A DNA stretch of 40,723 bases from Acidobacteriota bacterium (GCA_021779795.1 JAJXZZ010000001.1:1-40723), one strand, 5' to 3'; numbered from the stretch's first letter, positions 20,098-38,862 are shown. Notes: generated by a model from the sequence alone, not told the origin. Made by a program: numbers and translations.

Positions 20098-20101
20098 CGC
20101 G

Positions 20102-24981: not shown

Positions 24982-25009
24982 GTCAGCCGTCGGTCGTCAG
25001 CCGTCAGCC
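24982..25009. repeat. 4-unit heptamer array of GTCAGCC units
   Basis: GTCAGCC GTCGGTC GTCAGCC GTCAGCC. It ends 1 nt from the stop codon (25011-25013) of the SGNH-like gene. Confidence 0.8.
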
Positions 25010-25010
25010 G

Positions 25011-25852: not shown

Positions 25853-27289
25853 TCAGTACCCGATCTTCAGCGCGAGCGAGAGCAGCAGCAGGGCGACCGG
25901 GACGTAGACGAAGACGGCGAACTTCGCCGCCGCCTTGATGTACTTGAAGAAGCTCACGCCGGCCATCGAGCAGATCGTGAAGGCGATGCCGTCCCAGGGC
26001 ATCCAGAAGTTGAAGGCGCCCGACGCGAGCTGGAACGCCAGGACGACCACCTGCTTGGAAAAGTGCAGCACGTCGGCGAGCGGCGCCAGGATGGGCAGCA
26101 CCGCGGCGGCCGTGCCCGAGGCGCTGCCGAGCAGCGCCGCCATCAGGGCGCTCGTCCCGAACATCATGTAGGCGACGACGAACTTCGGCGCCTGCTCGAG
26201 GTAGCCCGCCATGAAATTGAGGATGGTGTCGAGGATGTTCGCGTCGTGCAGGATGAAGTAGATGACCTGCGCCGCGCTCATCATGATGACGGCCACCATC
26301 ACGCTGCGCATCCCCTCGATGTTCTTCGCGATCATGTCGGACACGGTCAGGCCGCCGGCCAGCGGCACGACGATGCCCATCCAGAAGAACAGGCCGCCGA
26401 TCTGGACGAAGCCCCACTCGTAGCGCAGCAGCCCCACCATCAGGACGGCGAAGCTGGCGAGCAGCAGCACGAGGGCCAGGGTCCGCCGCGGCGTCAGGGC
26501 CGCCGCGGTCGAGGCCTCGGGCGACGCGCGCAGCCGCCGGCGGTTCTCCACGTCCTCCTCGGCCGAGAGCGAGCGCGACGGGTCGCGCTGCACGCGCGCC
26601 GCGTAGCGCATGATGACGACGCTCGTGACGGTCATCAGCAGCAGGAAGCAGGCCACGCGGTAGGCGGTCCCCGAGTAGAGCGGCACGCCGGCCAGGATCT
26701 GGCCGATCGCCACCGTGTAGGGGTTGGTGATGCCGCACGCGAAGCCCACCGCGATGCTCCAGTACATGACGAACACGGCCGACATCGAGTCGAAGCCGAG
26801 CGTCAGCATCAGCGGGCTGATGACGAGGATGAACGGGATGGCCTCCTCGTACATCCCGAACGTCGCGCCGCAGGCGCCGAGCGCCAGGACGATCACCGGG
26901 ATGAACGCCAGGCCGAACCGGCTCGTGCGCCGGACGAGCGCGTGGATGCCGGCGTCCACCGCGCCGGTGGCGATCACGGCCGTCATCGCGCCCGCCGACA
27001 GCATGATCACGAACGACCGGTCGGCCCCCTCGATGGCGCCCCGCATGAACACGGCCCAGAGCTCGGTGAACCCCTGCGGCACCGAGGCCACGGGGTGGAA
27101 CGACCCCGGCACGACGATGGTGCGCACGTGCCCCATCACGTCGAGCGTCCGCCGGTCGAACATCCCGCCGGGGATGACGAAGGTCAGCAGCGCGAAGAAC
27201 ACGCAGAGGAAGAAGAGGATCACCAGCGGGCTGATGTTCCCCATCGCGGTCACGAGACGCTCTCTGGGAGTCGGCATGGGTGCGGCCAT
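25853..27289 (-). CDS. YfcC / DcuC-family membrane transporter
   Basis: 478-aa track ORF with about 11-12 hydrophobic helices. The N-terminal FALLTFVIPGG and the overall layout match YfcC-type putative amino-acid/peptide carriers. The start may be a downstream Met. Confidence 0.75.
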   Translation of the reverse strand: MAAPMPTPRERLVTAMGNISPLVILFFLCVFFALLTFVIPGGMFDRRTLDVMGHVRTIVVPGSFHPVASVPQGFTELWAVFMRGAIEGADRSFVIMLSAGAMTAVIATGAVDAGIHALVRRTSRFGLAFIPVIVLALGACGATFGMYEEAIPFILVISPLMLTLGFDSMSAVFVMYWSIAVGFACGITNPYTVAIGQILAGVPLYSGTAYRVACFLLLMTVTSVVIMRYAARVQRDPSRSLSAEEDVENRRRLRASPEASTAAALTPRRTLALVLLLASFAVLMVGLLRYEWGFVQIGGLFFWMGIVVPLAGGLTVSDMIAKNIEGMRSVMVAVIMMSAAQVIYFILHDANILDTILNFMAGYLEQAPKFVVAYMMFGTSALMAALLGSASGTAAAVLPILAPLADVLHFSKQVVVLAFQLASGAFNFWMPWDGIAFTICSMAGVSFFKYIKAAAKFAVFVYVPVALLLLSLALKIGY

Positions 27290-27339
27290 CCAGGTTCCGG
27301 GAACGGGGTCGGGGGCTCAGGGCCGGCGGTCCGGCTCCA

Positions 27340-28668
27340 TCAGAAGTCCTCGTAGAATGCCCGCGTCTTGACCTCCGCCAGCAGGTCCTCGAGGGCGGCG
27401 ACGGCCTCGGCCGCGCGGCGGTTGTCGAAGGCGGTGAGCAACTCCGCGGCAGCCGTGAGCTTCGACCGCCGGGCGCAGTCCTCGACCTCGGCCAGGGGCC
27501 CGACGGTGGCCGCCTCGAACGCCTGCCAGCGGTCCCTGACGAAGCCGGCGCACGCGGGATAGTGGCGGTCCACCAGCTTGGCCAGCTCGGTGAACAGCCA
27601 GTAGGCCGACCCGCGGTCGTAGCGTCCGCCGGCCGCGGCGTAGTGCGGCTCGATGGCGGTCACGCCGAGGTGGAACGGCACGAACACGCCGGTGAGCGAC
27701 GTGGACAGGCAGCACCACATCCGGTGCGCCAGGCCGGGCCGCGGGCCGCGCCGCGGCTCGAAGATCGTGCAGGCTTCCGTGTTCATGCGCGCCACCGTGC
27801 GGACCCGCGTGCGGAACGGCGACCCGTCGGCCCGAGCCTGGAAGAAGGGGGTCCCCTCGAACACGTCGCGCAGCAGCGTCGTCAGCTCCGGCACGCCGAC
27901 CTGGCCGAGCGCCGACAGCCGCCCCTCGAGCACCTCGTGGCGGTCCAGGTTGTACCGGTCCGACTGGTTGGCCGGGTCGCCGAACACGGCGGCGAAGTCC
28001 AGGGGCGGCGTCGCCGGCCAGCCGCGCCCGGCCGCGTACGAGGCGAGCGTCGGCGCGGCCATCTCGCTGGCCGGCGGTGCCGCCCCGGGCGCCCCAATCC
28101 GGTAACAGTTGGCCCTCACCGACACCTCGTCGTCGCCGACGCGGCGGGCCGCCCACTGGCCGTCGCGCGCCAGCTCCACCCACCAGGCTTCGTCGGGGTC
28201 CGCCACGGCGATCATCGTGCCGGAATCGCAGCTCAGGCCGTGGCGCCCGCACAGCTCGCCGACGAGCGCGGCCCCCTCGCGGGCCGACCGGGCGCGCTCG
28301 AGCACGAGCTGCAGGAACTCGGTCCAGATGACGCCGCCCGCGACGACGTCGTACAGGCGCGCCTCGGGCACGCCGCGCATCATGGCCATGTTGTTGGCCA
28401 CGGCCACGCCGTGCTCGTTGATGCCGCCCGTGTGGTCGCCGGGGTAATGGCGCTTGTCGAAGATCCGCGTGGCGAGGTAGCGGGCCAGGCGCGGCGGCTG
28501 GTCGAGGGCCCCCGACGAGTGGAGCGCGTAGCGTTCCCCGGGGCCGGTGCGCCGCGCCTCGACGAGCGACACCCGGTGCGCCGAGTTCCTCCCCAGCTCC
28601 TCGCTGTGGGCCAGGATCACGCGGCCGGTGGCGCTACGGTTCCTGCCGACGACAAGTGTCGTGCACAC
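27340..28668 (-). CDS. C69-family (Ntn cysteine) dipeptidase
   Basis: 442-aa track ORF starting with GTG followed immediately by Cys: (M)CTTLVVGRNRSATG. This is the N-terminal nucleophile arrangement typical of peptidase C69. Confidence 0.8.
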   Translation of the reverse strand: MCTTLVVGRNRSATGRVILAHSEELGRNSAHRVSLVEARRTGPGERYALHSSGALDQPPRLARYLATRIFDKRHYPGDHTGGINEHGVAVANNMAMMRGVPEARLYDVVAGGVIWTEFLQLVLERARSAREGAALVGELCGRHGLSCDSGTMIAVADPDEAWWVELARDGQWAARRVGDDEVSVRANCYRIGAPGAAPPASEMAAPTLASYAAGRGWPATPPLDFAAVFGDPANQSDRYNLDRHEVLEGRLSALGQVGVPELTTLLRDVFEGTPFFQARADGSPFRTRVRTVARMNTEACTIFEPRRGPRPGLAHRMWCCLSTSLTGVFVPFHLGVTAIEPHYAAAGGRYDRGSAYWLFTELAKLVDRHYPACAGFVRDRWQAFEAATVGPLAEVEDCARRSKLTAAAELLTAFDNRRAAEAVAALEDLLAEVKTRAFYEDF

Positions 28669-28684
28669 AAGCGCTCCGCACGGA

Positions 28685-29491
28685 TCAGCCGAAGAAGGCG
28701 TCGAGGACCTCGAGGTACGTCGCGACGCGGATGTCGAGCGCGGGCGAATCGGGCGCGTGCAGCAGGTTCTCGACCGTGATCACCGGGCTGCACGCCACGC
28801 GGCGGGCCAGCAGTTCGTCGATCGACCCGTCCGCGCTGTCCACGATCGCGCCGTCCACGAGGCGCTCGCCGAACCGCGTGACCCCCTCGCGGATGAGCGG
28901 CAGGCTCGACGCCGCGAGCGCGGCCCGCACGCGCCGGCTCTCCGGCCTGTCGGCCGCGCCGTCACCGATGAAGTACAGGTAGGACCCGGCGCCCTCGAAC
29001 TGGTAGCCGGGAGCCTCGTAGACCGGGTCCTCGTGGAGATCGAGCACCGCGGCGCCCGGGCGGATCCCGATCCCGCCCGTCACGAAACGGGTGATCGCGT
29101 CGGCCTCGGGACAGGCCGGCGCCTCCGATCGGCCGAGCAGGTGGTCGCTGTCCGAGACGCTCTGGCCCGACGGCCCGTACCGCTCGTGGTGGGCATAGCC
29201 CCAGGGATTGAGCAGCGGCATGACCAGCAGGCGGCGGGCGCGGCCGATCTCGACGAGCCTCGGCACGTAGCGCGCGATCGCGACCGCGCCGGCCGGCTCG
29301 CGCCCGTGGATGCCGCCGATGAGCACGCGGTCCACCTCGTCCGCGTTGAACCACGCGCGGATGGGAAAGCCGTCCTGCCGGGCCACCTCGACCGACTGCC
29401 AGCCGGCGTCGCCGAGCGCGCCGGCGGCCGCGAGAATCTCGTCGAACGGCGGGCGCCCGTCGCCGGGCGCCGCGCCGGCCAGGTGGGTCAT
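28685..29491 (-). CDS. M14-like zinc carboxypeptidase / succinylglutamate desuccinylase-aspartoacylase (AstE/AspA) family deacylase
   Basis: 268-aa track ORF. Zinc motif GGIHGREPAG (H-x-x-E), LNPWG, and a second His in DLHED. Confidence 0.7.
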   Translation of the reverse strand: MTHLAGAAPGDGRPPFDEILAAAGALGDAGWQSVEVARQDGFPIRAWFNADEVDRVLIGGIHGREPAGAVAIARYVPRLVEIGRARRLLVMPLLNPWGYAHHERYGPSGQSVSDSDHLLGRSEAPACPEADAITRFVTGGIGIRPGAAVLDLHEDPVYEAPGYQFEGAGSYLYFIGDGAADRPESRRVRAALAASSLPLIREGVTRFGERLVDGAIVDSADGSIDELLARRVACSPVITVENLLHAPDSPALDIRVATYLEVLDAFFG

Positions 29492-29500
29492 CGTCTTCCC

Positions 29501-30835
29501 TCAGCGCGCCCCGCGCGCCTCCCGCGCCTCGTTCAGGCTGCCCTCGAACAGCGCCAGCGCCTCGTCCACCTCGGCCTCCGACACCACGAGCGGCGGCATG
29601 AAGCGGACCGTGCTCCGCCCGCACGAGAGCAGCAGCAGGCCGTTGTGGAACGCGCGGCCCACGACCGCGTCGCAGAGCTCCACGGCGGGCGCCCTGGACT
29701 GGCGGTCCTCGACGAGCTCGACGCCGATGAACAGTCCCCGGCCCCGCACGTCGCCAATCTCCGGATGGCGCGACTGCAGGTCACGCAGCCGGTCCATGAA
29801 GATCCCTCCGACGCGCGCCGCGTTGGCCATGTACCCGCCCTCGACCAGGTCGAGCGTGGCGAGCGCCGCCGCGCAGCAGATCGGGTTGCCGCCGTACGTG
29901 TTGCCGTGCGCGCCGCGCGGCCAGGCCTCCATGACGCCGCGGCGGGCCATCATCACGCCGATCGGCATGCCGCTCGCGATCCCCTTGGCCATCGTGACGA
30001 TGTCGGGCTGGACGCCCTCGTGCTCGCACGCGAACATGCGGCCGGTCCTGCCGATGCCGGTCTGCACCTCGTCGCAGATGAGGAGGATGCCGTGGCGGTC
30101 GCACAGGTCGCGCAGGCCGGCGAGGAATCCAGGCGGCGGCACGACATATCCGCCCTCGCCCTGCATCGGCTCCACCAGCACGGCCGCCACTTCGTCGGCC
30201 GGCACGCTGGTGCGGAAGAGGACCTCCTCGACGTAGTCGAGGACGGCGCGTCCCTGGTCGCCGCCCGCGAGCAGCGGCCGGTACGGGTTCGGGTACGGCA
30301 CGTGCGTCACGCCGGGCATCGTCGGGGCGAAGCGCTTCTGCTGCGTGGACTTGCTCGACGTGAAGGCGAGCGCCCCCATCGTGCGCCCGTGGAATCCGCC
30401 GAGGAAGCCGATGAAGCGGGGCCGCCGCGTGGCGTAGCGCGCCAGCTTCAGGGCGGCCTCGACGGCCTCGGTGCCCGACTGGCCGAAGAAGCACATGGCC
30501 GGCTCCCGCATGGGCGCCAGCGCCGCGAGCCGCTCGCCGAGGCGGGTCTGCCCCTCGTGCCAGTAGTCGCTCGAGATGTGGATGAACTTCGCGGCGGCGT
30601 CCTGGATGGCGCGCACGACGTCGGGGTGGGCATGGCCGGTGCTGCACACGGCGATGCCGGCGGCGAAGTCGAGAAACCGGTTGCCGTCCACGTCCCAGAC
30701 CTCGCAGCCGCGGCCGTGCGACATGGCGAACGGGTTCTCGCGGGGATAGGACGGCGAGGTCACCGCGGCGTCGCGCGCCAGGAGCGCCTGGGCGGCCGGG
30801 CCGGGAAGCGGCGTGCGGATGTGCGGCGTGTTCAT
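29501..30835 (-). CDS. class-III PLP aminotransferase, GabT / lysine-epsilon / acetylornithine aminotransferase-like
   Basis: 444-aa track ORF. Motifs GQSGTEAVEAALKLAR, EPMQGEGGY, DEVQTGIGRTG, PLP lysine in TMAKGIASG, NTYGGNP. Confidence 0.85.
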   Translation of the reverse strand: MNTPHIRTPLPGPAAQALLARDAAVTSPSYPRENPFAMSHGRGCEVWDVDGNRFLDFAAGIAVCSTGHAHPDVVRAIQDAAAKFIHISSDYWHEGQTRLGERLAALAPMREPAMCFFGQSGTEAVEAALKLARYATRRPRFIGFLGGFHGRTMGALAFTSSKSTQQKRFAPTMPGVTHVPYPNPYRPLLAGGDQGRAVLDYVEEVLFRTSVPADEVAAVLVEPMQGEGGYVVPPPGFLAGLRDLCDRHGILLICDEVQTGIGRTGRMFACEHEGVQPDIVTMAKGIASGMPIGVMMARRGVMEAWPRGAHGNTYGGNPICCAAALATLDLVEGGYMANAARVGGIFMDRLRDLQSRHPEIGDVRGRGLFIGVELVEDRQSRAPAVELCDAVVGRAFHNGLLLLSCGRSTVRFMPPLVVSEAEVDEALALFEGSLNEAREARGAR

Positions 30836-30853
30836 GAACGGATCCTTTCGGCC

Positions 30854-31642
30854 TCAGTACGGCACTCGTATCGCCCGCGCGTGGGCGGCGCGCGTCCGCG
30901 CCTGCAGGTCGCGCAGGATGCGCAGTTCGTCGCCGGTGGGCGGCGCCACGACGTTCACGTGGGGGGCGACGGCGAGCGGCCATCCCGTGGCGGCGACGAC
31001 GCGCTCGACCGTCACGTCTTCGAACCGCTCCACCAGTTGCAGCTCTTCGGTCTCGGGATCGGGGCGGAGGATGCCGAGGTCCGTGATCACGGCCTGCGGC
31101 CCGGCCCCCGCGGCCCCGGCGCGCGCGCGCGCGCCGCGCCCCTCCAGGAACCCGGCGCTGCTGACGAAGTCCAGGCGCGGCACGAACGCGCGCGGCGTCT
31201 GCTTGAGGACGACGAAGACCTGCCCGGCGCTGGAGGCGATCTCGGGTGCGCCGCCCGCGCCCGGCAGCCGCGTCTTCGGGCGGGCGTAGTCGCCGATGAC
31301 GGTGCTGTTGAGATTGCCGAACCGGTCGATCTGCGCCGCGCCCAGGAAGCCGACGTCCACGCGGCCGCCCTGCAGGTAGTAGGCGAAGATCTCGGGCAGC
31401 GGCACCACGGCCGTGGCCGTGTCGGCCAGCTCCCCGTCGCCGATCGACAGCGGCAGCACGTCGGGGCGCGTGCCCACCGTGCCCGACTCGTAGACGAGCA
31501 CGATGTCGGGGGCGTGCGTGTGGCGGGCCAGGTTCGCCGCCGCCGACGGCAGGCCGATGCCGACGAAGCACACGCAGCCGTCCCAGAGCATCCGGGCCGC
31601 GGCCACCGTCATCATTTCGTCGCGCGTCCAGGGGGGCGTCAC
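30854..31642 (-). CDS. CoA-transferase subunit B (GctB / actinobacterial PcaJ-like)
   Basis: C-terminal part of track ORF 30854..33823. GTG start at 31642 (VTPPWTRDEMM) overlaps the subunit A stop by 4 nt (GTGA). Motifs GIGLPS, YESG, GAAQIDRFGNLN, LPGAGGAPE. Confidence 0.8.
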   Translation of the reverse strand: MTPPWTRDEMMTVAAARMLWDGCVCFVGIGLPSAAANLARHTHAPDIVLVYESGTVGTRPDVLPLSIGDGELADTATAVVPLPEIFAYYLQGGRVDVGFLGAAQIDRFGNLNSTVIGDYARPKTRLPGAGGAPEIASSAGQVFVVLKQTPRAFVPRLDFVSSAGFLEGRGARARAGAAGAGPQAVITDLGILRPDPETEELQLVERFEDVTVERVVAATGWPLAVAPHVNVVAPPTGDELRILRDLQARTRAAHARAIRVPY

Positions 31643-32511
31643 CGGGTCACCTCCATGGCATCCCGCGTCGAGGCGACGCCCAGGCTGCGCAGGAACGCGG
31701 CGTGGTCGCGCGTGCCGAGCACGTGCGCGTCGATCCACTGGCGGAACCGGTCGCGGTCGCGCGAGATCTCGTCCCACGCCAGGTAGAAGGCGTTGTCGCG
31801 CGCGTAGCATCCCTGGGCGTAGGACGGGTAGGCGCCGCCCGGCACGCACGCGACCGCGGTGACCAGCCAGCCCGGCAGCACGACGGCGTTCATCGGCGCG
31901 TCGAGCGCGTCCACCACCTGCTCGACCGTCACGACGAGCCGCCTGGCCGCCATCGCGGCTTCCTTCTGGGCGCCCAGGATGCCGCGCAGCAGCACGTTGC
32001 CGCGCCGGTCGGCCTGGACGGCGTGGAGGATCGTCACGTCTGGCCGCAGCGCGGGCACCGTGGCGATCGTCTCGCCGGTGTAGGGGCACGTGACGCTCTT
32101 CACCTGCGGGTTGACCCGCGGGAGGTCCGTGCCGATGTACCCGCGCAGCACGCCGAAGGGGAGGTTCGCGGCGCCGGCCGTGTAGGCGGCGGCCATGCCG
32201 GCGTGCGAGTGCTCGACGATCTCGAGCGGGCGCGGCCAGCCGTTCTCGACGGCGTCGCGCAGCCGGTGGAGCGACCCCACGCCCGGGTTCCCGCCCCACG
32301 AGAACGTCAGGGCGCGTGCGCAGCCCGCCCCGATCATCTGGTCGTAGACGAGGTCGGGCGTCATCCGGACCAGGTGCAGGTCGCGGCGGCCCTGCCGGAT
32401 GATCTCGTGGCCGGCGGCGAACGGGATGAGGTGCGTGAACCCCTCGAGGGCGAGCGTCTGTCCGTCCTCGACGTACCGCGCCACGGCGTCGTGCAGCGTC
32501 AGCAGCGCCAT
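31639..32511 (-). CDS. CoA-transferase subunit A (GctA / actinobacterial PcaI-like)
   Basis: 290-aa track ORF (MALLTLHDAVARYVEDGQTLALEGF...). Motifs HAVQADRRGN and the overall GctA-like layout. The start lies 3 nt after the upstream ALDH stop. Confidence 0.8.
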   Translation of the reverse strand: MALLTLHDAVARYVEDGQTLALEGFTHLIPFAAGHEIIRQGRRDLHLVRMTPDLVYDQMIGAGCARALTFSWGGNPGVGSLHRLRDAVENGWPRPLEIVEHSHAGMAAAYTAGAANLPFGVLRGYIGTDLPRVNPQVKSVTCPYTGETIATVPALRPDVTILHAVQADRRGNVLLRGILGAQKEAAMAARRLVVTVEQVVDALDAPMNAVVLPGWLVTAVACVPGGAYPSYAQGCYARDNAFYLAWDEISRDRDRFRQWIDAHVLGTRDHAAFLRSLGVASTRDAMEVTR

Positions 32512-32514
32512 CCG

Positions 32515-34083
32515 CTACTCCACCCAGGTCTGCGACTGCTCCCGCAGGTACTGCGGCAGGTAGTAGAACGAGCCGATCGCCTTGCCGGTGGATCCCGAGC
32601 CCTTCCAGCCGCCGAACGGCTGGTAGCCGGGCCACGCCCCGGTCGTGGCCCCCTGCGGCCGGTTCGCGTAGGTCACGCCGGCCTCGATGCGATCGAAGAA
32701 CGCCGCCACCTCGTCCTGGCTGCCGTAGCAGCCCGCCGTCAGGCCCAGCGTGGCGTCGTTGGCGAGCCGGAGCCCCTCCTCGAAGTCCTTCACGCGGCTC
32801 ACCATGAGGATCGGCAGGAACAGTTCCTCGCGGTAGAGCGGGTGGTCGGCCGGCGCCTCGGCCAGCGTGGGGGCGACGTAGTGACCGCGGGCGAAGGCTT
32901 CGCCCTCGAGGCGGCTGCCTCCGACGAGAATCCGCGCGCCGCCGGCTCGCAGCCGCTCGCAGCACGCGTCGAAGTCGCGGGCCGCGCGCGCCGAGATGAC
33001 GGGCCCCATGTAGTTCTCCCGCCGCGTGGGATCGCCGACGGTGAGCGCCCGGATCTCGGCGGCCAGGCGTTCGATGAACCGGTCGGCCACCGACGCCTCG
33101 ACGTAGATCCGCGACAGCGCCGAGCACTTCTGCCCGCTCAGGCCGTAGGCGGATCGCGACGTGCCCTTCACGGCGCGCGCGAGGTCGGCGCGCGCGGTGA
33201 CGATGCACGGGTTCTTGCCGCCGGCCTCGACGATGCACGGGCGCGGCCAGGAGCCCGAGGCCATGGCGCCGAAAATTCGCTGGCCCACGACGAACGACCC
33301 GGTGAACGTGGCGCCGGCCACGGCGGGATGGGTGACGAGCGCCTCGCCGACCACGCGGCCGCTGCCGACGACGTAGTTGAAGACCCCGGGAGGGGCGCCG
33401 GCGTCCCTGATGCACTCGGCGAGCAGCCGGCCGGCCCACGGGGTGTCGGTGGCGCCCTTCAGCACCACCGTGTTGCCGGTGACCAGCGCGGCCGCGGTCG
33501 GGCCGCCGGCCAGCGCCAGCGGGTAGTTGAACGGCGCGATGACGGCCCACGCGCCGTGCGGCTTGAGCACGCTGCGGTTGTGCGACTTCCAGCCCTCGAG
33601 CGGGTCGTCGGGCAGCCGGCGGTCGTAGCCCCCGTTGCGCTCGAACTCGTCGGCGTAGCCCCTGAAGAAGTCCGCGGTCTCCTGCGTCTCGCCGAGCGCC
33701 TCCATCCGGTTCTTGCCCACCTCGATGGCGAGTGCGGCGCCGATCGTGTAGACGCGCTCCTCGATGAGGTCGGCCACGCGGCGGGCGACCGCGAGGCGCT
33801 CGGCCGTGGGCGTGCGCCGCCACGTGTCGAACGCGCGGCGCGCCGCCGCGACGGCCGCCTCCACGTCGGCCGCGCCGCCGGACGGGAAGCGGCCGGTCAC
33901 CACCCGGTCGTCGATGGGGCTGGTTCGCGCGACGCCCTGCCCGGCCTCGACGTCCCGGCCGTCGATGTACATCGGGTGGGAGGCCCCGAGGCCCGCCTTC
34001 ACCTCGGCCAGCGCCCGCTCGAAGCGCGCGTGCATCTCCTCGGGCGGGTTGAACATCGTCGAATACGTGAGCTTGAACGTCAT
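32515..34083 (-). CDS. aldehyde dehydrogenase of the 1-pyrroline-5-carboxylate / amino-acid-semialdehyde dehydrogenase type
   Basis: Start at ATG 34083 (MTFKLTYSTMFNPPEE), overlapping the upstream stop by 4 nt (ATGA). Motifs VIAPFNYPLA, catalytic EAGGKNP and GQKCSA, and a C-terminal GSGSTGKAIGSFYYLPQYL tail like P5CDH. 522 aa. Confidence 0.82.
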   Translation of the reverse strand: MTFKLTYSTMFNPPEEMHARFERALAEVKAGLGASHPMYIDGRDVEAGQGVARTSPIDDRVVTGRFPSGGAADVEAAVAAARRAFDTWRRTPTAERLAVARRVADLIEERVYTIGAALAIEVGKNRMEALGETQETADFFRGYADEFERNGGYDRRLPDDPLEGWKSHNRSVLKPHGAWAVIAPFNYPLALAGGPTAAALVTGNTVVLKGATDTPWAGRLLAECIRDAGAPPGVFNYVVGSGRVVGEALVTHPAVAGATFTGSFVVGQRIFGAMASGSWPRPCIVEAGGKNPCIVTARADLARAVKGTSRSAYGLSGQKCSALSRIYVEASVADRFIERLAAEIRALTVGDPTRRENYMGPVISARAARDFDACCERLRAGGARILVGGSRLEGEAFARGHYVAPTLAEAPADHPLYREELFLPILMVSRVKDFEEGLRLANDATLGLTAGCYGSQDEVAAFFDRIEAGVTYANRPQGATTGAWPGYQPFGGWKGSGSTGKAIGSFYYLPQYLREQSQTWVE

Positions 34084-35384
34084 GACCACTCCGAGTCGCC
34101 GAGCAGGCGGTCGAGGACGTCGATCGCGCGGCGAAGATCCGTCTCTTCGATGACGAGCGGCGGGGCGAGGACGACGAGGTTGCCGCGCACGGCGAACGAG
34201 ACGCCCTCGTCGAGCGCGCGGCGGGCGAGAGCGGCGAGCGCGGGGTGCACCTCGGGCCACGGGCGAAGCGGCTCGCGCGTGGCGCGGTCCCTGACGAGTT
34301 CGAGGACGGCGAACAGCCCTCGACCTCCCCGAACGTCGCCGATGACCGGGTGGCGCGCGGCCAGATCCCGGAGCCGGCCGAACAGCCAGGCGCCCAGCGC
34401 CCGCGATCGCGCGATGAGGCCTTCCTCCTCGTAGGCGTCGATGGCGGCGACGCCGGCGGCGCACGCGAGCGGGTGGCCGCAGTAGGTCAGGCCGGTGTTG
34501 AGCGGCACCTGCTCGAGACGGCCGGCCACCTCCTTCGAGACGACGACGGCGGCAAGGGGGATGTGCGCGCCGGTCAGCCCCTTGGCGAGCGTCATCAGGT
34601 CGGGCCGCCCCTCTTCGCCGTAGCGCTGCCAGGCGAACCACTCGCCGCACCGGCCGAAGCCGCTCATCACCTCGTCGGCGATGAGCCAGACGCCCTTCTC
34701 GCGCGTCACGCGCCTGAGGCCGGGCCAGAAGTTGCCGGGCGCGACGATGCCGTTGGTGCCGGCGTCGGGCTCCATCAGGACGGCCGCGGCGTCGGGATCG
34801 GCGTCGAGGGCCTGGCCCACCGCCTCGACGGCCTTCGCGCCGCAGGCCTCGTCCGAGCGCGTGCCGAAGGGGCACCGGTAGGCGTAGGGGGGCGGCACGC
34901 GGCGCACGGGGAAGGCGGCGGGGTCGGCCTGGGCGCTGGTGCGGCTGTCGCCGCTCAGGGCCATGGCGGCGTAACTCGCGCCGTGGTACGAGCGGTCTCG
35001 GGTGACGATGGCGCCGCGGGGCCGGCCGAGGGCCTGGCGCGCGAACTTGACCGCCTGTTCGTTGGCGTCGGCGCCGCCGAGCGTGAAGAAGACGCGGCCC
35101 CCCTCGAAGCCGGACTTCTCGAGCAGCCGCTCGGCCAGGCGGGCGCGGGGCTCGGCGCCCCAGGCGGCGGTGACGAAGCAGAGGCGCGCGGCCTGCTCCT
35201 GGATGGCGCGGACGACGCGCGGGTGCTGGTGGCCGAGGTTGACGCACTCGGCCTGGCTGCTCATGTCGAGGTACTGGCGGCCGGACTCGTCCCAGAAGCG
35301 GGCGCCGCGCCCGCCGGCGACGGTGGGGGCGTTCCAGCCGGCCTGGACGCACCAGCTGTGGAGGACGGTGTCCCGCTCGGCCAT
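34080..35384 (-). CDS. class-III PLP aminotransferase, omega/beta-amino acid:pyruvate aminotransferase-like
   Basis: Start trimmed to ATG 35384 (MAERDTVLHSW), with AGGAG 5 nt upstream. Motifs GGADANEQAVKFAR, DEVMSGFGRCG, PLP lysine in TLAKGLTG. 434 aa. Confidence 0.82.
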   Translation of the reverse strand: MAERDTVLHSWCVQAGWNAPTVAGGRGARFWDESGRQYLDMSSQAECVNLGHQHPRVVRAIQEQAARLCFVTAAWGAEPRARLAERLLEKSGFEGGRVFFTLGGADANEQAVKFARQALGRPRGAIVTRDRSYHGASYAAMALSGDSRTSAQADPAAFPVRRVPPPYAYRCPFGTRSDEACGAKAVEAVGQALDADPDAAAVLMEPDAGTNGIVAPGNFWPGLRRVTREKGVWLIADEVMSGFGRCGEWFAWQRYGEEGRPDLMTLAKGLTGAHIPLAAVVVSKEVAGRLEQVPLNTGLTYCGHPLACAAGVAAIDAYEEEGLIARSRALGAWLFGRLRDLAARHPVIGDVRGGRGLFAVLELVRDRATREPLRPWPEVHPALAALARRALDEGVSFAVRGNLVVLAPPLVIEETDLRRAIDVLDRLLGDSEWS

Positions 35385-35394
35385 GTGGGCTCCT

Positions 35395-35409
35395 GTGCGA
35401 TAATCGCAC
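35395..35409. promoter_or_regulatory. perfect 15-bp palindrome GTGCGATAATCGCAC; candidate PcaR/IclR operator
   Basis: 7-nt arms GTGCGAT / ATCGCAC around a central A. It abuts the SD of the 8-gene operon, in the divergent control region shared with the IclR gene. Confidence 0.55.
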
Positions 35410-35412
35410 ATA

Positions 35413-35429
35413 AGTTCGTGTTGCGAACT
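35413..35429. promoter_or_regulatory. second inverted repeat AGTTCG-N5-CGAACT
   Basis: 6-bp arms, 3 nt from the first palindrome. It shares the (G)TTCG / CGAA(C) half-site flavour. Confidence 0.35.
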
Positions 35430-35484
35430 CATTAGAGATCCCCTACGCTAGGCTTGTCAACCGGCATCCCGGACGAGAACGCGC

Positions 35485-36291
35485 GTGCCGCCATCCGCCA
35501 CCGACCGCTTCATCGAGGGGCCCGACTACGTGCAGTCGCTCGCGCGCGGCCTGTCCGTCCTGCGGTCGTTCGACGCGGCCCACACGTCGATGACCCTCTC
35601 GGAGGCGGCGGCCCGGAGCGGCCTCGCCCGCGCCGCGGCCCGCCGCGCCCTCCTGACGCTCGCGCACGAGGGGTACGTGGCCGCCGCCGGCGGGCGCTTC
35701 CGCCTGCTGCCGCGCGCGCTCGAGCTGGGCTTCGCCTACCTGGCGTCGCTCCGGCTGCCCGAGCTGGCCCAGCCCGAGATGGAGGCCCTCTCGCGCCGCG
35801 TCAACGAGTCGTGCTCGCTCTCGGTGCTCGACGGCCAGGAGATCGTCTACGTGGCGCGCGTGCCCGTGCGGAAGGTGGTGGCGATCACGCTCGGCGTGGG
35901 CGCGCGGCTCCCCGCCTACGCCACGTCGATGGGGCGCGTCCTGCTCGCGGGGCTCCCGGACGACCGGCTCCACGCGTGGCTGGCCGCGTGCCGCCTCGCG
36001 CCGCTGACGCCCCGCACCATCCGCAGCCGCGCCGCGCTCCGCGCCGAGATCGCCCGCGTGCGCCGGCAGGGCTACGCGATGGTCCGGCAGGAGCTGGACC
36101 CCGGCCTCCTCTCGGTGGCCGTCCCGATCCGCGACCGGCGGGGCGAGGTGATCGCCGCGCTGAACGTCGGCACGGGCATCGGCCACGACGCGGCGAAGCG
36201 GGCGCGCAACCTGTTCCTGCCGGGCCTGCGCGCAGCCCAGGCCGCCGTCGAGTGGGCGCTGGCCCACCAGTTTCTCGCGACAGGGAGCTGA
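35485..36291 (+). CDS. pcaR: IclR-family transcriptional regulator, PcaR/PcaU subfamily-like
   Basis: 268-aa track ORF with a GTG start. YVQSLARGLSVLRSF, the HTH MTLSEAAARSGLARAAARRALLTL, and an effector domain with IVYVARV and ATSMGRVLLAGL are colinear with pca regulon regulators. Confidence 0.7.
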   Translation: MPPSATDRFIEGPDYVQSLARGLSVLRSFDAAHTSMTLSEAAARSGLARAAARRALLTLAHEGYVAAAGGRFRLLPRALELGFAYLASLRLPELAQPEMEALSRRVNESCSLSVLDGQEIVYVARVPVRKVVAITLGVGARLPAYATSMGRVLLAGLPDDRLHAWLAACRLAPLTPRTIRSRAALRAEIARVRRQGYAMVRQELDPGLLSVAVPIRDRRGEVIAALNVGTGIGHDAAKRARNLFLPGLRAAQAAVEWALAHQFLATGS

Positions 36292-36293
36292 CC

Positions 36294-37496
36294 ATGCGAT
36301 CCGCCTTTCTCTGCGCCGCGGTCCGGACGCCTTTCGGGCGCCACCGCGGCGCGCTCGCCCGCGTCCGCACCGACGACCTGGCCGCGTTCCCCATCAGCAC
36401 GCTCATGGCGCGGCTGCCCGCGGTGGACTGGGGCGCCGTGGACGACGTGCTGCTCGGCTGCGCGAACCAGGCGGGCGAGGACAACCGCAACGTCGCCCGG
36501 ATGGCCGCGCTGCTCGCCGGCCTCCCGCCCGGCGTGCCGGGCGCGACGATCAATCGGCTCTGCGCCTCGGGCCTCGAAGCCGTCAGCCAGGCGTCGCGCG
36601 CGATCCGCGTCGGCGAGGCCGACCTCGTCGTGGCCGGCGGCGTCGAGAGCATGTCGCGCTCGCCGTTCGTCCTCGCCAAGGCCGAGACGCCGTTCTCGAA
36701 GAACCAGCTGCTCCAGGACTCCACCGTCGGCTGGCGATTCGTGAACCCGAAGATGCAGGCGCGCTACGGCACCGACAGCAACGCGCAGACGGCCGAGAAC
36801 CTGGCGCGCGAGCGCGGGATCGCGCGGGAGGACCAGGACGCGTACGCCGCCCGCAGCCAGGCCCGCGCGGAGGCCGCCCGGCTGGCCGGGCGCCTGGCCG
36901 AGGAGATCGCCCCGATCGACGTGCCCGCCGGCCGCGAGGTGAGGCGGGTCGCCGCGGACGAGCATCCCCGGCCCGGCACGACCGCCGCGCAGCTCGCGGC
37001 GCTCGAGCCGCTGCTCGGCCCCGGCACGAGCCTCACGGCCGGCAACGCGTCCGGGATCAACGACGGCGCGTGCGCGCTGCTCCTCGCCTCGGAGCCGGCG
37101 ATGGCGCGCCACGGCCTCGAACCGATCGCGCGCGTCGGCGGCGCCGCCGCCGCCGGCGTCGAGCCGCGCGTGATGGGGATCGGTCCCGTGGAGGCGATCC
37201 GCCGGTTGCTCGACCGCGAGCGCCTCACCCTGTCGGACGTGGATCTGGTCGAGATCAACGAGGCGTTTGCCGCCCAGGTGCTGGCGTGCACGCGTGCGCT
37301 CGGCCTGCCCGACGACGCGGATCTCGTGAACCCGAACGGCGGGGCGATCGCGCTCGGCCACCCGCTCGGCGCGAGCGGCGCGCGCCTCTGCCAGACGGCG
37401 GCGCTCGAGCTCGGGCGGCGCGGCGGCCGCCGCGCCGTGGTGAGCCTGTGCGTGGGCGTCGGGCAGGGGCTGGCGGTGATGCTCGAGCGGCCCTGA
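36294..37496 (+). CDS. pcaF: 3-oxoadipyl-CoA thiolase / acetyl-CoA C-acyltransferase (PcaF/PaaJ type)
   Basis: ATG 36294 is 2 nt after the IclR stop, with a GGGAG SD. Motifs GCANQAGEDNRNVARMAALLAGLP, NRLCASGLEAV (active-site Cys), GWRFVNPKM, NPNGGAIALGHPLGASGARL, CVGVGQGLAVMLER. 400 aa. Confidence 0.85.
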   Translation: MRSAFLCAAVRTPFGRHRGALARVRTDDLAAFPISTLMARLPAVDWGAVDDVLLGCANQAGEDNRNVARMAALLAGLPPGVPGATINRLCASGLEAVSQASRAIRVGEADLVVAGGVESMSRSPFVLAKAETPFSKNQLLQDSTVGWRFVNPKMQARYGTDSNAQTAENLARERGIAREDQDAYAARSQARAEAARLAGRLAEEIAPIDVPAGREVRRVAADEHPRPGTTAAQLAALEPLLGPGTSLTAGNASGINDGACALLLASEPAMARHGLEPIARVGGAAAAGVEPRVMGIGPVEAIRRLLDRERLTLSDVDLVEINEAFAAQVLACTRALGLPDDADLVNPNGGAIALGHPLGASGARLCQTAALELGRRGGRRAVVSLCVGVGQGLAVMLERP

Positions 37497-37533
37497 GTCC
37501 TGGCGGTCGAACCTCCCTGAAAGGCGGCACCTG

Positions 37534-38862
37534 ATGGCCCCCGCGGCGGAACGGCGAAACCAGTCCTCGGTCGGTTTCTGGATGGCCACGGCTCTCGTGG
37601 CCGGCAACATGATCGGCTCGGGGATCTTCCTGCTGCCGGCGGCGCTGGCCCCCTTCCGCGCCGACAACCTCCCCGGCTGGCTGCTGACCAGCATCGGCGC
37701 CATCACGCTGGCCGCCGTCTTCGCCCAGTTGAGCCGGAGCATCCCCGGCGCGGGCGGGCCCTACGCCTACACGCGCGAGGCGTTCGGCGACCTGGCGGGC
37801 TTCTCGGTCGCCTGGGGGTACTGGGTGTCGATCTGGGTCGGCAACGCCGCCATCACCACCGGCGCCGTGGGCTACATCGGCGAGTTCATGCCCTGGATGG
37901 TCGCCACGCCGCTGAACACCGCCCTCTCCTCCCTCTTCTTCCTCTGGGTGTTCACGTTCGTCAACTGCGCCGGCATCAGGGCCGCGGGCTGGACGCAGGC
38001 CGTCACGACGCTGCTGAAGCTCACGCCCATCGTGGCGGCCGCCGCCCTGTTCCTGACGCGCGTCCCCTCGTGGGGGCAGGTGGCCGCGGCCCCCCAGCAC
38101 TTCACCCTCGGCGGAACCGCGGCGGTGGCCACGCTCGCGCTGTGGGCGATGCTCGGCTTCGAGTCGGCCACCGTTCCCGCCGACAAGGTGCGCGACGCGC
38201 GGCGGACGGTGCCGCGCGCGACGATGTTCGGCACCGTGCTGACGGCGCTGCTGAGCGCGGCTGCCTGCGGCGCCGTGCTGCTCCTCGTCCCGGCCGGCCG
38301 GCTGGCGGCCTCGACGGCCCCGTTCGCCGACCTGGCGGCCGACGTATGGGGCCTCGGCGCGGCGCGCGCCGTGTCGGTGTTCGCGGCCATCAGCGCCCTC
38401 GGCGCGCTCAACGGCTGGATCCTGCTCCAGGGCGAACTGCCGCGCGCGATGGCCCGCGACGGCCTCTTCATCCCCGCGTTCGCCAGGACGTCGAAGCGGG
38501 GCACGCCGATTGTCGCGCTGGTGGCGACGAGCGTGCTCGTCACGATTCTCGTGGCGCTCAACATCCGCCGCTCGCTCGTGGGCGTGTTCACCTTCTTCGT
38601 GCTGCTCGCCACGACGGCCAGCCTGGTCGCCTACCTGGCCAGCGCCCTGGCCCTGCTGCGCCTGTCGGCCGCCGGCCGCGCCGGCACCTCGCGGACCGCG
38701 CGGATCGCGTTCGGCACGCTCGGCGTGCTCGGGGCGATCTATTCGCTCGCGGCGCTGGCGGGCGCCGGGCGCGAGGCGGTCCTCTGGGGCGTGGTCCTGC
38801 TGGCCGCGGGGCTACCCGTCTACATGGTGCTGCGACGCAGGAGAGCCGTGGCGGATCGGTAG
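37534..38862 (+). CDS. APC-superfamily permease (basic amino acid/polyamine antiporter-like)
   Basis: 442-aa track ORF with 12 predicted helices and the signature VAGNMIGSGIFLLPAALA. It follows pcaF after a 37-nt gap. Confidence 0.85.
   Translation: MAPAAERRNQSSVGFWMATALVAGNMIGSGIFLLPAALAPFRADNLPGWLLTSIGAITLAAVFAQLSRSIPGAGGPYAYTREAFGDLAGFSVAWGYWVSIWVGNAAITTGAVGYIGEFMPWMVATPLNTALSSLFFLWVFTFVNCAGIRAAGWTQAVTTLLKLTPIVAAAALFLTRVPSWGQVAAAPQHFTLGGTAAVATLALWAMLGFESATVPADKVRDARRTVPRATMFGTVLTALLSAAACGAVLLLVPAGRLAASTAPFADLAADVWGLGAARAVSVFAAISALGALNGWILLQGELPRAMARDGLFIPAFARTSKRGTPIVALVATSVLVTILVALNIRRSLVGVFTFFVLLATTASLVAYLASALALLRLSAAGRAGTSRTARIAFGTLGVLGAIYSLAALAGAGREAVLWGVVLLAAGLPVYMVLRRRRAVADR

Follow-up and report, generated by a model that had tools for sequence, protein, structure and literature searches.

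The aromatic beta-ketoadipate pathway ends with two enzymes, a succinyl-CoA:3-oxoadipate CoA-transferase (PcaIJ) and a 3-oxoadipyl-CoA thiolase (PcaF). The operator of the pathway regulator PcaR of Pseudomonas putida is GTTCGATAATCGCAC (PMC12455658). As stated in the initial annotation of the locus described here, there seems to be no precedent for feeding this pathway with an amino acid, and our literature search turned up none. As for possible amine substrates, beta-lysine (3,6-diaminohexanoate) is the beta-homologue of ornithine, and 3-aminoadipate is beta-homoglutamate. The Barker laboratory is said to have described the biochemistry of N6-acetyl-beta-lysine in Pseudomonas B4 (EC 2.6.1.65).

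The cluster belongs to a soil bacterium of the Acidobacteriota and lies in a window of 40,723 nucleotides, the whole stretch of DNA that was analysed. It is real: all eleven ORFs, with their coordinates and strands, were verified in the window, and the public gene calls for two NCBI MAG contigs bearing an identical cluster agree with them. The minus-strand operon has the Pfam content Aminotran_3 (twice), Aldedh, CoA_trans (twice), AstE_AspA_cat (weak), Peptidase_C69 and DcuC. Direct reading of the sequence confirmed two 4-nt overlaps, an ATGA (34080-34083) between the genes of a class-III aminotransferase, AT1, and of an ALDH, and a GTGA (31639-31642) between those of the two CoA-transferase subunits. 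According to the coordinates, the remaining gaps in this operon are 3, 18, 9, 16 and 50 nt. The divergent operon begins across a 100-bp intergenic region, and its second gene, for the thiolase, starts 2 nt past the end of the regulator gene. Ring-cleavage and lactone genes (pcaGH/B/C/D and catABC) were indeed not found among the other genes of the window.

The similarities that we computed for the PcaR-, PcaF- and PcaIJ-like proteins are of the level expected of orthologues. The regulator (35485..36291, plus strand) is an IclR-family protein of the PcaR/PcaU/PobR subfamily, as first proposed. It passes NCBIfam model TIGR02431 (313.5 bits, cut-off 284.75), matches P. putida PcaR (8eju) with 191 bits, its top PDB match being 2ia2, and shares 44-46% identity with the products of the IclR genes that adjoin S. 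meliloti and P. veronii pcaIJF. The PcaF-like thiolase (36294..37496, plus strand) is colinear with 3-oxoadipyl-CoA thiolases, as had been noticed. It aligns end to end with the pcaF model TIGR02430 (596.4 bits, cut-off 597) and over its full length with PRK09050 (601.7, cut-off 605), it has the P. putida beta-ketoadipyl-CoA thiolase 6pca among its top PDB matches (497 bits), and its identity to PcaF of canonical clusters is 57-62%. In a neighbour-joining (NJ) tree, cluster-linked thiolases interleave with canonical PcaF.

Both subunits of the CoA-transferase, A (PcaI; 31639..32511, minus strand) and B (PcaJ; 30854..31642, minus strand), have the Pfam CoA_trans domain, and the top PDB match of subunit A is GctA (1poi). 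The initial label 'GctA/GctB-type' is correct for the fold alone, because by function the enzyme groups with PcaIJ of pcaIJF, pcaHG-B-D-C and catC clusters in S. meliloti, P. veronii and Azospirillum (59-69% identity). Functionally, the glutaconate-type label does not apply. Subunit A is 63-69% identical to its counterparts in the pca clusters of these three taxa, and the ScoA/PcaI model TIGR02429 gives it only 29 bits. Subunit B is 59-68% identical to the products of genes found beside pcaF, pcaD, pcaHG, pcaB and pcaC, and a 79% identical homologue is named '3-oxoadipate:succinyl-CoA transferase subunit' in one source. For S. rimosus and Rubrobacter, the transferase identities are within the range of 49-70%. 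Cluster-linked transferases form an NJ clade of their own, apart from five canonical PcaIJ pairs, which leaves room for a shifted substrate.

The divergent intergenic region contains a perfect palindrome, GTGCGATAATCGCAC (35395..35409), which we predict to be a PcaR-type operator. It agrees with the P. putida operator at 14/15 bases and is placed before AT1, whose start codon lies 11 nt downstream, and not before the transferase genes. An adjoining palindrome seen by direct reading, GTTCGTGTTGCGAAC (35414..35428), is possibly a second site for the regulator. Of the 26 related loci that carry an IclR gene, 21 have a PcaR box upstream of their first core gene, whereas none of the 58 that lack an IclR gene has one. 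The box of Rhodanobacter umsongensis matches the PcaR operator exactly (15/15), and boxes are found in canonical pca loci (L009, L011) too.

Conservation of the gene set in other genomes bears out the association. At least 592 relatives of the ALDH were found in GTDB species genomes. Homologues of AT1 are present in 61 of 84 related loci and those of AT2, the second class-III aminotransferase, in 67. Of the loci, 43 are complete and retain the order AT1-ALDH-PcaI-PcaJ-AT2; they come from Acidobacteriota and several proteobacterial orders, with Lysobacterales, Steroidobacteraceae and Alphaproteobacteria among the groups represented. Dozens of genomes from two or more phyla share this colinear five-gene core, so its arrangement is not due to chance. 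Together with the predicted operator and the 59-69% identity to PcaIJ, this cross-phylum colinearity supports a functional tie between the aminotransferase and ALDH genes and a PcaR-PcaIJ-PcaF lower pathway, as judged by sequence comparison. Eight loci have AT1-ALDH-AT2 and no transferase, as expected if the upper pathway yields free 3-oxoadipate; one of them (L051) retains the IclR gene and the PcaR box. In another locus (L016), AT1-ALDH is joined to canonical-type pcaJ-pcaF.

None of AT1, the ALDH and the transporters reaches any NCBIfam equivalog cut-off, and their roles are proposed from their nearest relatives. AT2 (29501..30835, minus strand) belongs to the GABA/ornithine omega-aminotransferase group (PRK05769, 585 bits, cut-off 552), and its top PDB match is P. 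horikoshii 7vno (390 bits), followed by GabT/PuuE; its nearest group also takes in class-III racemases. For AT1 (34080..35384, minus strand; Aminotran_3, 279 bits), the top PDB match is the taurine:2-oxoglutarate aminotransferase 6jix (276 bits). In Deinococcus, a 43% identical AT1 homologue adjoins a gene annotated as a CoA-acylating methylmalonate-semialdehyde dehydrogenase, presumably a beta-alanine arrangement. The roles first given to the two aminotransferases should probably be reversed, with AT2 as the omega and AT1 as the beta enzyme. The ALDH (32515..34083, minus strand) was correctly described as P5C dehydrogenase (P5CDH)-like and belongs to the RocA-like lineage. Its top NCBIfam match is the L-glutamate gamma-semialdehyde dehydrogenase PRK03137 (371 bits over its full length, cut-off 648), ahead of succinate-semialdehyde dehydrogenase (SSADH; 228-270 bits), aminobutyraldehyde/betaine-aldehyde dehydrogenase (246-257) and P6C dehydrogenase (242) models, and its top PDB match is T. 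thermophilus P5CDH (1uzb, 279 bits).

These resemblances strengthen the proposed chemistry, and the sequence from diamino acid to amino-semialdehyde, 3-amino-dicarboxylate and 3-oxoadipate remains the most economical reading. The diamino acid would enter through the APC-superfamily permease (37534..38862, plus strand), whose nearest models are, as first suggested, basic amino acid/polyamine antiporters (AdiC 274.9 and TIGR00905 274.2, both below cut-off) and which has homologues in 35 of the 84 loci. AT2 would remove the terminal amine of beta-lysine to give 3-amino-6-oxohexanoate, which could cyclise to a five-membered P5C-like imine. The ALDH would oxidise it to 3-aminoadipate, from which AT1 would form 3-oxoadipate, to be converted by the PcaIJ-type transferase and the thiolase to succinyl-CoA and acetyl-CoA. 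The regulator would bind between the divergent operons, probably with 3-oxoadipate as its effector. We infer the substrate and its intermediates, which of the transaminations comes first, and the effector. Beta-lysine in particular is deduced from stoichiometric economy and family resemblance, and we rate as about even the chances that this PcaR-controlled operon burns a diamino acid, most likely beta-lysine, through free 3-oxoadipate. A search of 1.63 Mb of sequence from related loci (about 90 loci) found no homologue of lysine 2,3-aminomutase less than 10 kb from the cluster, so beta-lysine would have to be supplied from outside.

The last three minus-strand genes were initially made part of the route, but they form a separable module that is not intrinsic to it, since it is limited to some lineages, is missing from most relatives and stands alone elsewhere. 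The first encodes a small cytoplasmic zinc hydrolase (28685..29491, minus strand) with a weak match to PF24827 (AstE_AspA_cat, 27.4 bits, cut-off 25). Of the initial label 'AstE/M14-like', the second half fits its structure better. In Foldseek searches with its AF2 model (pLDDT 93.7), the uncharacterised Shewanella metallopeptidases 2qvp/3ieh/3b2y (TM 0.73) and Francisella REP34 come out on top and AstE (1yw4) far down. An HxxE motif (H62, E65) and H153 are invariant among 36 homologues; the family is small (306 matches, mostly annotated as hypothetical), and the gene is present in only 4 of the 84 loci. The second product is a dipeptidase-like C69-family protein (27340..28668, minus strand; PF03577, 132.6 bits; C69 equivalog 156, cut-off 250), which starts with M-C-T-T and whose Cys2 we take to be the Ntn nucleophile. 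The third is a DcuC-family transporter (25853..27289, minus strand; PF03606, 227 bits) nearest to the YfcC model (234.7, cut-off 500). The three genes co-occur with the core in L003, L005, L006, L015 and L099, and without it in L098 and L100. In the Acidobacteriota lineage studied here, the module might import and hydrolyse a small peptide or an N-acyl conjugate. In Proteobacteria, S58 and other peptidases take its place. In 33 of the 84 loci, a gene for peptidase S58 (the family of the beta-aminopeptidases DmpA/BapA; 387 bits) occurs no more than 10 kb from the core, in some of them directly 3' of the cluster on the same strand.

We consider it unlikely that the same architecture serves a different amine, leading to 3-oxoadipate or to a homologue such as 3-oxopimelate or 3-oxoglutarate. 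Candidates include 4,6-diaminohexanoate, a beta-diamino acid of seven or five carbons, or 3-aminoadipate that is set free ready-made from a natural product. Everything that speaks for a branch of aminotransferases and ALDH into PcaIJF would apply to them as well, as it does not specify the carbon skeleton, and both the separate transferase clade and the variety of peptidases accompanying the core would fit. However, to our knowledge, no well-known natural compound other than beta-lysine would yield 3-oxoadipate by exactly these three steps, and an ALDH resembling P5CDH rather than P6CDH speaks for a diamine with 1,4 spacing, able to close to a five-membered imine.

A Barker-type route appears improbable. 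AT1 would transaminate N6-acetyl-beta-lysine at C3, and the resulting 6-acetamido-3-oxohexanoate would be activated by the transferase and cleaved by the thiolase to 4-acetamidobutyryl-CoA and acetyl-CoA. Deacetylation by the M14-like enzyme would then give GABA, to be converted to succinate by AT2, which is close to GabT/PuuE, and by the ALDH acting as an SSADH. Each core enzyme would be used once, in keeping with the biochemistry reported for Pseudomonas B4, and the window does hold a deacylase-like gene. Nevertheless, the conserved core includes neither an acetyltransferase nor a cytoplasmic deacetylase, the M14-like gene is rare, and the ALDH prefers P5CDH to SSADH models. A dedicated transferase would also be needed, yet some loci keep AT1-ALDH-AT2 without transferase and thiolase, one of them with a PcaR box, and L016 has PcaJ and PcaF of canonical type.

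That two unrelated functions share one transcript is very improbable. AT2 and the ALDH, which resemble ornithine aminotransferase and P5CDH, would convert ornithine or a similar compound to glutamate, next to a peptide-uptake module and to a housekeeping pcaIJF serving aromatic catabolism encoded elsewhere. The free-standing trio is at least modular, as this requires. In contrast, the transferase genes are inserted between those of the ALDH and AT2, their junctions being overlaps or 3-nt gaps and their order kept across phyla, the PcaR box precedes AT1, the ALDH falls far short of the P5CDH cut-off, and AT1 would be left without a role. Least credible is a cadaverine/5-aminovalerate/glutarate route (AT, ALDH and AT with reuse of the ALDH, then glutaryl-CoA formation by the transferase, a glutaryl-CoA dehydrogenase encoded elsewhere and the thiolase): two omega-type aminotransferases with an ALDH make up the pattern classically seen for diamines, the permease is of a suitable type and L003 has acyl-CoA dehydrogenase and ETF genes downstream, but no acyl-CoA dehydrogenase family recurs among the 84 loci, the ALDH scores lower on aminobutyraldehyde/betaine-aldehyde dehydrogenase than on P5CDH models, one ALDH would have to perform two oxidations, and the transferase, thiolase, regulator and predicted operator are all of 3-oxoadipate type.

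Returning to the beta-lysine reading, we counted in its favour two links to beta-amino acids, namely the proximity of peptidase S58 genes and a Rhizobium plasmid on which a 43% identical ALDH homologue lies 2.5 kb from a KamA-family aminomutase. The other neighbours of that homologue are a GNAT, an HDAC-like deacetylase, a class-III aminotransferase and a BKACE fragment, and this context looks closer to the N-acetyl-beta-lysine route than to one through 3-aminoadipate. Overall, the coupling to PcaR, PcaIJ and PcaF stands from the initial annotation, while the aminotransferase roles, the glutaconate-type label and the accessory genes had to be revised. In comparison with known systems, the cluster-linked transferases are about as distant from canonical PcaIJ (median identity 59-62%) as canonical enzymes are from each other (63-67%). 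If the proposed route is true, it is an undescribed one, in which the last two enzymes of the aromatic pathway are joined to two aminotransferases and an ALDH.

In the gene cluster at 25853-38862, a five-gene core coding for two class-III aminotransferases, an aldehyde dehydrogenase (ALDH) and both subunits of a CoA-transferase probably delivers 3-oxoadipate, or a compound very closely analogous to it, to the PcaIJF reactions of the beta-ketoadipate pathway. The core lies on the minus strand in the order AT1 (aminotransferase, 34080-35384), ALDH (32515-34083), CoT-A and CoT-B (the PcaI- and PcaJ-like transferase subunits, 31639-32511 and 30854-31642) and AT2 (aminotransferase, 29501-30835), and is followed on the same strand by genes for an M14-like hydrolase (28685-29491), a C69 protein (27340-28668) and a DcuC/YfcC-family transporter (25853-27289). 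The divergent plus-strand operon codes for an IclR regulator (35485-36291), a PcaF-like thiolase (36294-37496), whose start is 2 bases past the regulator stop codon, and an APC permease (37534-38862). All eleven open reading frames were found where the initial annotation had placed them, and the ATGA overlap at 34080-34083 and the GTGA overlap at 31639-31642 can be read directly in the sequence. Pfam and NCBIfam searches returned two class-III aminotransferases, one ALDH, two CoA_trans subunits, the DcuC/YfcC-family transporter and the permease, for which basic amino acid/polyamine antiporters are nearest. The contig has a G+C content of 72%, and a consensus scan for promoters and terminators between 24 and 40 kb gave no signal above shuffled sequences. 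The identical cluster is present on contigs of two NCBI MAG assemblies (GCA_027388555.1 and GCA_027350935.1), and its closest named relatives are in Vicinamibacterales/Acidobacteriota MAGs.

The best PDB match of both transferase subunits is the glutaconate CoA-transferase GctAB (1poi; 102 and 147 bits), and they score only 29 and 46 bits with the ScoAB-type PcaIJ models TIGR02429/02428, hence their earlier designation as GctAB-type. A tblastn search against annotated plasmids revealed the genetic context of this transferase type: it adjoins pcaF and an IclR gene in Sinorhizobium meliloti, is found inside a pcaQ-HG...IclR-IJ-F-B-D-C cluster in P. veronii, and adjoins pcaF-pcaD and catC in Azospirillum, pcaHG-B-C in Streptomyces rimosus and pcaHG in Rubrobacter. 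CoT-A and CoT-B are 63-69% and 59-68% identical, respectively, to the corresponding subunits of canonical pca clusters. More generally, median identities between cluster-linked and canonical transferases (59-62%) are about equal to those among canonical ones (63-67%). A glutaconate-type function was discarded, as the transferases of pca clusters are much closer relatives and nothing in the gene context points to a 2-hydroxyglutaryl-CoA dehydratase. Sequence comparisons indicate that the transferase, which is not of the ScoAB-like PcaIJ type, is orthologous to the PcaIJ enzymes of five canonical pca/cat clusters, and the same activity is predicted for it. As for the thiolase, it aligns over its full length with the pcaF model TIGR02430, 0.6 bit short of the cut-off (596.4 vs 597), it is 57-62% identical to thiolases of canonical clusters, and the P. 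putida beta-ketoadipyl-CoA thiolase (PcaF, 6pca) is among its top PDB matches. In a neighbour-joining tree, cluster-linked thiolases are interleaved with canonical PcaF proteins.

The regulator passes the PcaR/PcaU/PobR model TIGR02431 (313.5 bits vs a cut-off of 284.75), aligns with P. putida PcaR (8eju) at 191 bits and is 44-46% identical to the products of IclR genes in canonical clusters. The operator of P. putida PcaR is GTTCGATAATCGCAC, and 3-oxoadipate is the effector of PcaR in Pseudomonas (PMC12455658). A perfect palindrome, GTGCGATAATCGCAC, identical to GTTCGATAATCGCAC at 14 of 15 bases, is found at 35395-35409, in the 100 bp that separate AT1 from the regulator gene. Thus, an operon led by an aminotransferase gene bears the sequence that serves as operator at the pcaIJ promoter. 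We searched for this box in 84 related loci, allowing at most 2 mismatches, in the 400 bp that precede the first core gene. It was found in 21 loci, at 24-56 bp from that gene in 19 of them. All 21 carry the IclR gene, so that the box accompanies 21 of the 26 IclR-bearing loci and is missing from all 58 that lack the regulator. In Rhodanobacter umsongensis it is identical to the operator at all 15 bases, and the same motif precedes the pca genes in the canonical P. veronii and Azospirillum loci. Taken together, the lower-pathway genes are predicted to form a real PcaR-PcaIJ-PcaF set. A second palindrome, GTTCGTGTTGCGAAC, at 35414-35428, 4 nt from the PcaR box, may represent a second regulator site.

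Using the ALDH as query against one genome per GTDB species, we found at least 592 relatives. The best 80, which are 58-73% identical to the query, belong to Acidobacteriota, Lysobacterales, Steroidobacteraceae, Woeseiaceae, Caulobacteraceae, Burkholderiales and Chthoniobacterales. Locus counts were taken from tblastn maps; a GC3-based ORF caller had merged the aminotransferase and ALDH families and generated antisense artefacts (families 7 and 11). Among the 84 loci, AT2 is present in 67, CoT-A in 62, CoT-B and AT1 in 61 each, the APC permease in 35, the IclR regulator in 26 and the thiolase in 19. The complete, colinear five-gene core occurs in 43 loci, and many of the remaining ones are on truncated contigs. 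AT1, ALDH and AT2 genes are adjacent without the transferase in eight loci, one of which (L051) keeps the IclR gene and the box, and in another locus (L016) AT1 and ALDH are coupled to pcaJ-pcaF of the canonical type. These arrangements fit the pattern expected of an upper branch yielding free 3-oxoadipate, which any PcaIJF set could use. As initially noted, no ring-cleavage or lactone genes (pcaGH, pcaB, pcaC, pcaD, catABC) are found among the genes of the window, contrary to what a complete aromatic beta-ketoadipate pathway would require; they are also absent from the inspected families that recur in related loci.

AT2 passes the NCBIfam model PRK05769 (585 vs a cut-off of 552) and is nearest to P. 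horikoshii 7vno, which we take to be an ornithine delta-aminotransferase, and to the GabT/PuuE group of omega-aminotransferases, a group that also holds class-III racemases. For the ALDH, the best full-length alignment is with RocA-type P5C dehydrogenase (371 bits; 279 bits to 1uzb), and scores are lower with succinate-semialdehyde dehydrogenase (SSADH) models (228-270), aminobutyraldehyde/betaine-aldehyde dehydrogenase models (246-257) and the P6C dehydrogenase model (242). It remains far below the P5CDH equivalog cut-offs (PRK03137, 371 vs 648; TIGR01237, 355 vs 660) and is also below those for SSADH (PRK09407, 270 vs 521; TIGR01780, 233 vs 646), the latter two scores being under those of the P5CDH models. 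We assign it on these grounds to the P5CDH lineage, though not as an equivalog. AT1 is nearest to the taurine:2-oxoglutarate aminotransferase 6jix; in taurine, the amine is beta to the acid group. In Deinococcus, a 43% identical AT1 homologue adjoins a CoA-acylating methylmalonate-semialdehyde dehydrogenase, presumably an arrangement typical of beta-alanine catabolism. On a haloarchaeal plasmid, the surroundings of a distant ALDH homologue consist only of IS elements.

It is tempting to propose a route from beta-lysine (3,6-diaminohexanoate), which is ornithine with one additional CH2 before the carboxylate. The ornithine-type omega-aminotransferase would convert it to 3-amino-6-oxohexanoate, able to close into a five-membered, P5C-like imine, the P5CDH-like ALDH would oxidize this intermediate to 3-aminoadipate, and the beta-type aminotransferase would yield 3-oxoadipate, which PcaIJ and PcaF would split into succinyl-CoA and acetyl-CoA. 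The cluster's regulator would, moreover, respond to 3-oxoadipate as its effector, as PcaR does in Pseudomonas. Beta-lysine had served as an example in the initial annotation. We keep that scheme as a proposal but exchange the roles of the aminotransferases, AT2 being omega-like and AT1 of the taurine/beta type. Such a route would use each enzyme once and need no extra enzyme, and among well-known natural compounds we are aware of none besides beta-lysine for which this would hold. We put the chance that beta-lysine is the actual substrate at close to even, if slightly under. A search of 1.63 Mb of loci with E. coli EpmB as query gave no homologue of lysine 2,3-aminomutase (KamA/EpmB) in the 10 kb on either side of the core; the substrate would thus need to be taken up rather than synthesized from lysine next door.

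The main rival is a route of the Barker type, as in Pseudomonas B4, in which beta-lysine would be degraded as its N-acetyl derivative. It is echoed by a region of Rhizobium sp. CB3171 plasmid pCB3171_2 (L096; NZ_CP121654.1, 288308-305849), which resembles the N-acetyl-beta-lysine route more than the 3-aminoadipate route. There, a P5CDH-like ALDH, 43% identical to that of the window, is encoded 2.5 kb away from the gene for a radical SAM aminomutase of the KamA family (233 vs a cut-off of 199), a neighbour that ties this ALDH lineage to beta-amino-acid metabolism. The region also encodes a class-III aminotransferase, a GNAT protein, an HDAC-family deacetylase, a 133-aa BKACE-like fragment, a 3-hydroxyacyl-CoA dehydrogenase and a pipecolate-oxidase-like flavoprotein, and may represent, at the level of genes, the orphan N-acetyl-beta-lysine pathway. 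For the cluster studied here we disfavour such a route, as the conserved core comprises neither an acetyltransferase nor a deacetylase, its ALDH is P5CDH-like, the transferase is missing from some loci, and L016 employs canonical PcaJ and PcaF proteins. In addition, neither GNAT nor BKACE families were found among the inspected recurrent families of related loci. A route from cadaverine through glutarate lacks support from the neighbours, since no acyl-CoA dehydrogenase recurs among them, and it would require two aldehyde oxidations. Finally, the idea that the operon joins two unrelated halves is contradicted for the core by the insertion of pcaIJ within it and by the PcaR box upstream of AT1, and is partly right for the genes of the M14-like, C69 and DcuC proteins.

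This trio is attached to the core in the window and in five related loci (L003, L005, L006, L015 and L099), and it stands alone in two others (L098, 10001-13651; L100, 6327-9915), with no aminotransferase/ALDH/PcaIJ core within 10 kb. In Proteobacteria, the core has other neighbours in its place. The trio thus appears to be a separable import-and-hydrolysis module and not, as first thought, an intrinsic part of the route. The M14-like protein has an invariant HxxE...H zinc motif and matches PF24827 (AstE_AspA_cat) weakly, over residues 56-107 only (27.4 bits vs a cut-off of 25). Its structure model (pLDDT 93.7) best matches uncharacterized Shewanella M14-like metallopeptidases (2qvp/3ieh/3b2y; TM 0.73) and Francisella REP34, and is nearer to these than to AstE (1yw4), from which the earlier 'AstE-like' label was taken. 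The family is small and its members are mostly labelled hypothetical. The C69 protein matches PF03577 (132.6 vs a cut-off of 23) and remains below the equivalog NF033678 (156 vs 250), a solved dipeptidase being only a remote match. Its N-terminus is M-C-T-T, and we take Cys2 to be the Ntn nucleophile.

Among the genes that recur around the core in Proteobacteria, the most frequent code for peptidases S58 of the DmpA/BapA family (387 bits), in 33 of the 84 loci, followed by a PD40 beta-propeller protein of about 856 aa (32 loci), S9 peptidases (22), TonB-dependent receptors (14), M20 peptidases (11) and large M14 peptidases (10). The N-termini of representative neighbour proteins appear signal-peptide-like. 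S58 enzymes such as DmpA, BapA and BapF are beta/D-aminopeptidases, which cleave off N-terminal beta- or D-amino acids, and to our knowledge their natural substrates are largely unknown. Their recurrent link with the core fits the release of a beta-amino acid from peptides. S58 genes adjoin the core in L023 (19383-20612), L079, L013 and L072, among others, some directly downstream on the same strand, and in L083 the place of AT1 is taken by an S58 gene. Occasional neighbours (FAD oxidoreductase, molybdopterin oxidoreductase, ABC-F and OYE-like reductase), read from the sequence, were uninformative.

Several other genes in and around the loci deserve mention. A large membrane protein with a C-terminal phosphatidylglycerol lysyltransferase domain (MprF-like, PF09924, 268 bits) is encoded at 5231-8104 on the plus strand. 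The region 14679-21633 codes for a class I/II aminotransferase extended by about 130 aa at its N-terminus, an acyl-CoA synthetase of the AMP-binding type and an acetyl-CoA hydrolase/transferase-GNAT fusion (648 aa, Pat-like C-terminus) followed by a divergent CoA-acylating aldehyde dehydrogenase (EutE/AdhE-N type), and it may constitute a separate acyl-CoA/aldehyde module. Between the two metabolic blocks, a 643-aa aconitase-family protein (21816-23744, minus strand) keeps its position in the sister MAG contig L001. Two minus-strand ORFs with coding-type GC3 (251 and 152 aa; 24388-25766), just downstream of the DcuC gene, have no Pfam or NCBIfam family match and are not conserved in related clusters. 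Downstream of the Vicinamibacterales cluster L003 (16743-20789) are genes for an acyl-CoA dehydrogenase, an ETF-beta and an unusual fusion of ETF-alpha with an HpaB/4-hydroxybutyryl-CoA-dehydratase-like domain (>824 aa).

The beta-ketoadipate pathway is a textbook funnel for aromatic compounds. What would be new here is a feeder branch of that pathway, composed of enzyme families that are already known. In the literature, of which our coverage is incomplete, we found no account of 3-aminoadipate as a catabolic intermediate, of an aminotransferase branch into pcaIJF or of a conversion of beta-lysine to 3-oxoadipate; one mention of 'beta-aminoadipic' is a typographical slip for alpha-aminoadipic. 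Our fullest hypothesis, which we advance tentatively and consider somewhat more likely to fail than to hold, is a widespread aerobic pathway that would take beta-lysine, whether free or liberated from beta-lysyl or N-acyl conjugates, through 3-aminoadipate and 3-oxoadipate to PcaIJF, with PcaR sensing the shared intermediate. The beta-ketoadipate pathway would thereby gain its first amino-acid feeder, and the linked S58, C69 and M14-like enzymes would be the first such hydrolases with a natural role in supplying beta-amino acids. A conserved, PcaR-controlled aliphatic-amino feed would open the funnel to substrates rich in nitrogen. Should beta-lysine indeed be the substrate, the cluster would provide the genetic basis of its aerobic catabolism in Vicinamibacteria, Lysobacterales and Steroidobacteraceae, which are abundant but little-studied soil groups, make 3-aminoadipate a real metabolic intermediate, suggest a natural substrate class for S58 beta-aminopeptidases, and allow the correction of hundreds of 'aspartate aminotransferase family' and 'aldehyde dehydrogenase family' annotations. 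As the carriers include cultured Rhodanobacter, Dyella, Lysobacter and Arenimonas, the idea is directly testable.

Among known systems, the PcaR regulon of the P. putida/S. meliloti type (pcaR-pcaIJ-pcaF) is similar in its IclR subfamily, 15-bp operator, PcaIJ proteins (59-69% identity) and PcaF-like thiolase, and it shares the proposed junction, 3-oxoadipate, and the end products succinyl-CoA and acetyl-CoA. However, the box-led operon of the window opens with an aminotransferase and an ALDH, its transferase genes lie between ALDH and AT2, and it would be fed with an aliphatic amino compound in place of protocatechuate or catechol. The likeness to GctAB of Acidaminococcus fermentans, whose subunits are similar in size, is at the level of the fold and not of function. 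As for S58 beta-aminopeptidases, there are none in the window, whose hydrolases are the C69 Ntn-hydrolase and the small M14-like enzyme.

The aerobic N6-acetyl-beta-lysine pathway of Pseudomonas B4, reportedly the work of the Barker laboratory, has in common with our proposal beta-lysine as a candidate substrate, a class-III beta-transaminase and a CoA-dependent C-C cleavage beside a 3-oxo group, and the window matches it in having a deacylase-like gene. In contrast, that pathway protects N6 by acetylation and cleaves to a C4 unit (GABA) and acetoacetate or acetyl-CoA, never forming 3-aminoadipate or 3-oxoadipate, whereas the window core lacks acetyltransferase, BKACE and aminomutase genes. 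Its possible gene-level counterparts are the yodT-yodS-yodR-yodQ-yodP-kamA operon of B. subtilis and L096 of Rhizobium; the B. subtilis annotation paper does not mention kamA or yodT. The closest chemical parallel is the conversion of ornithine to glutamate-5-semialdehyde/P5C, glutamate and 2-oxoglutarate, with the same three reaction types in the same order, and it is to the families of this route that AT2 and the ALDH are nearest by sequence. The proposed pathway would be its exact beta-homologue, the carbon that bears the amine being one CH2 further from the carboxylate. The ornithine route ends in a 2-oxo acid that enters the TCA cycle, whereas the proposed one would end in a 3-oxo acid that needs CoA activation and thiolysis.
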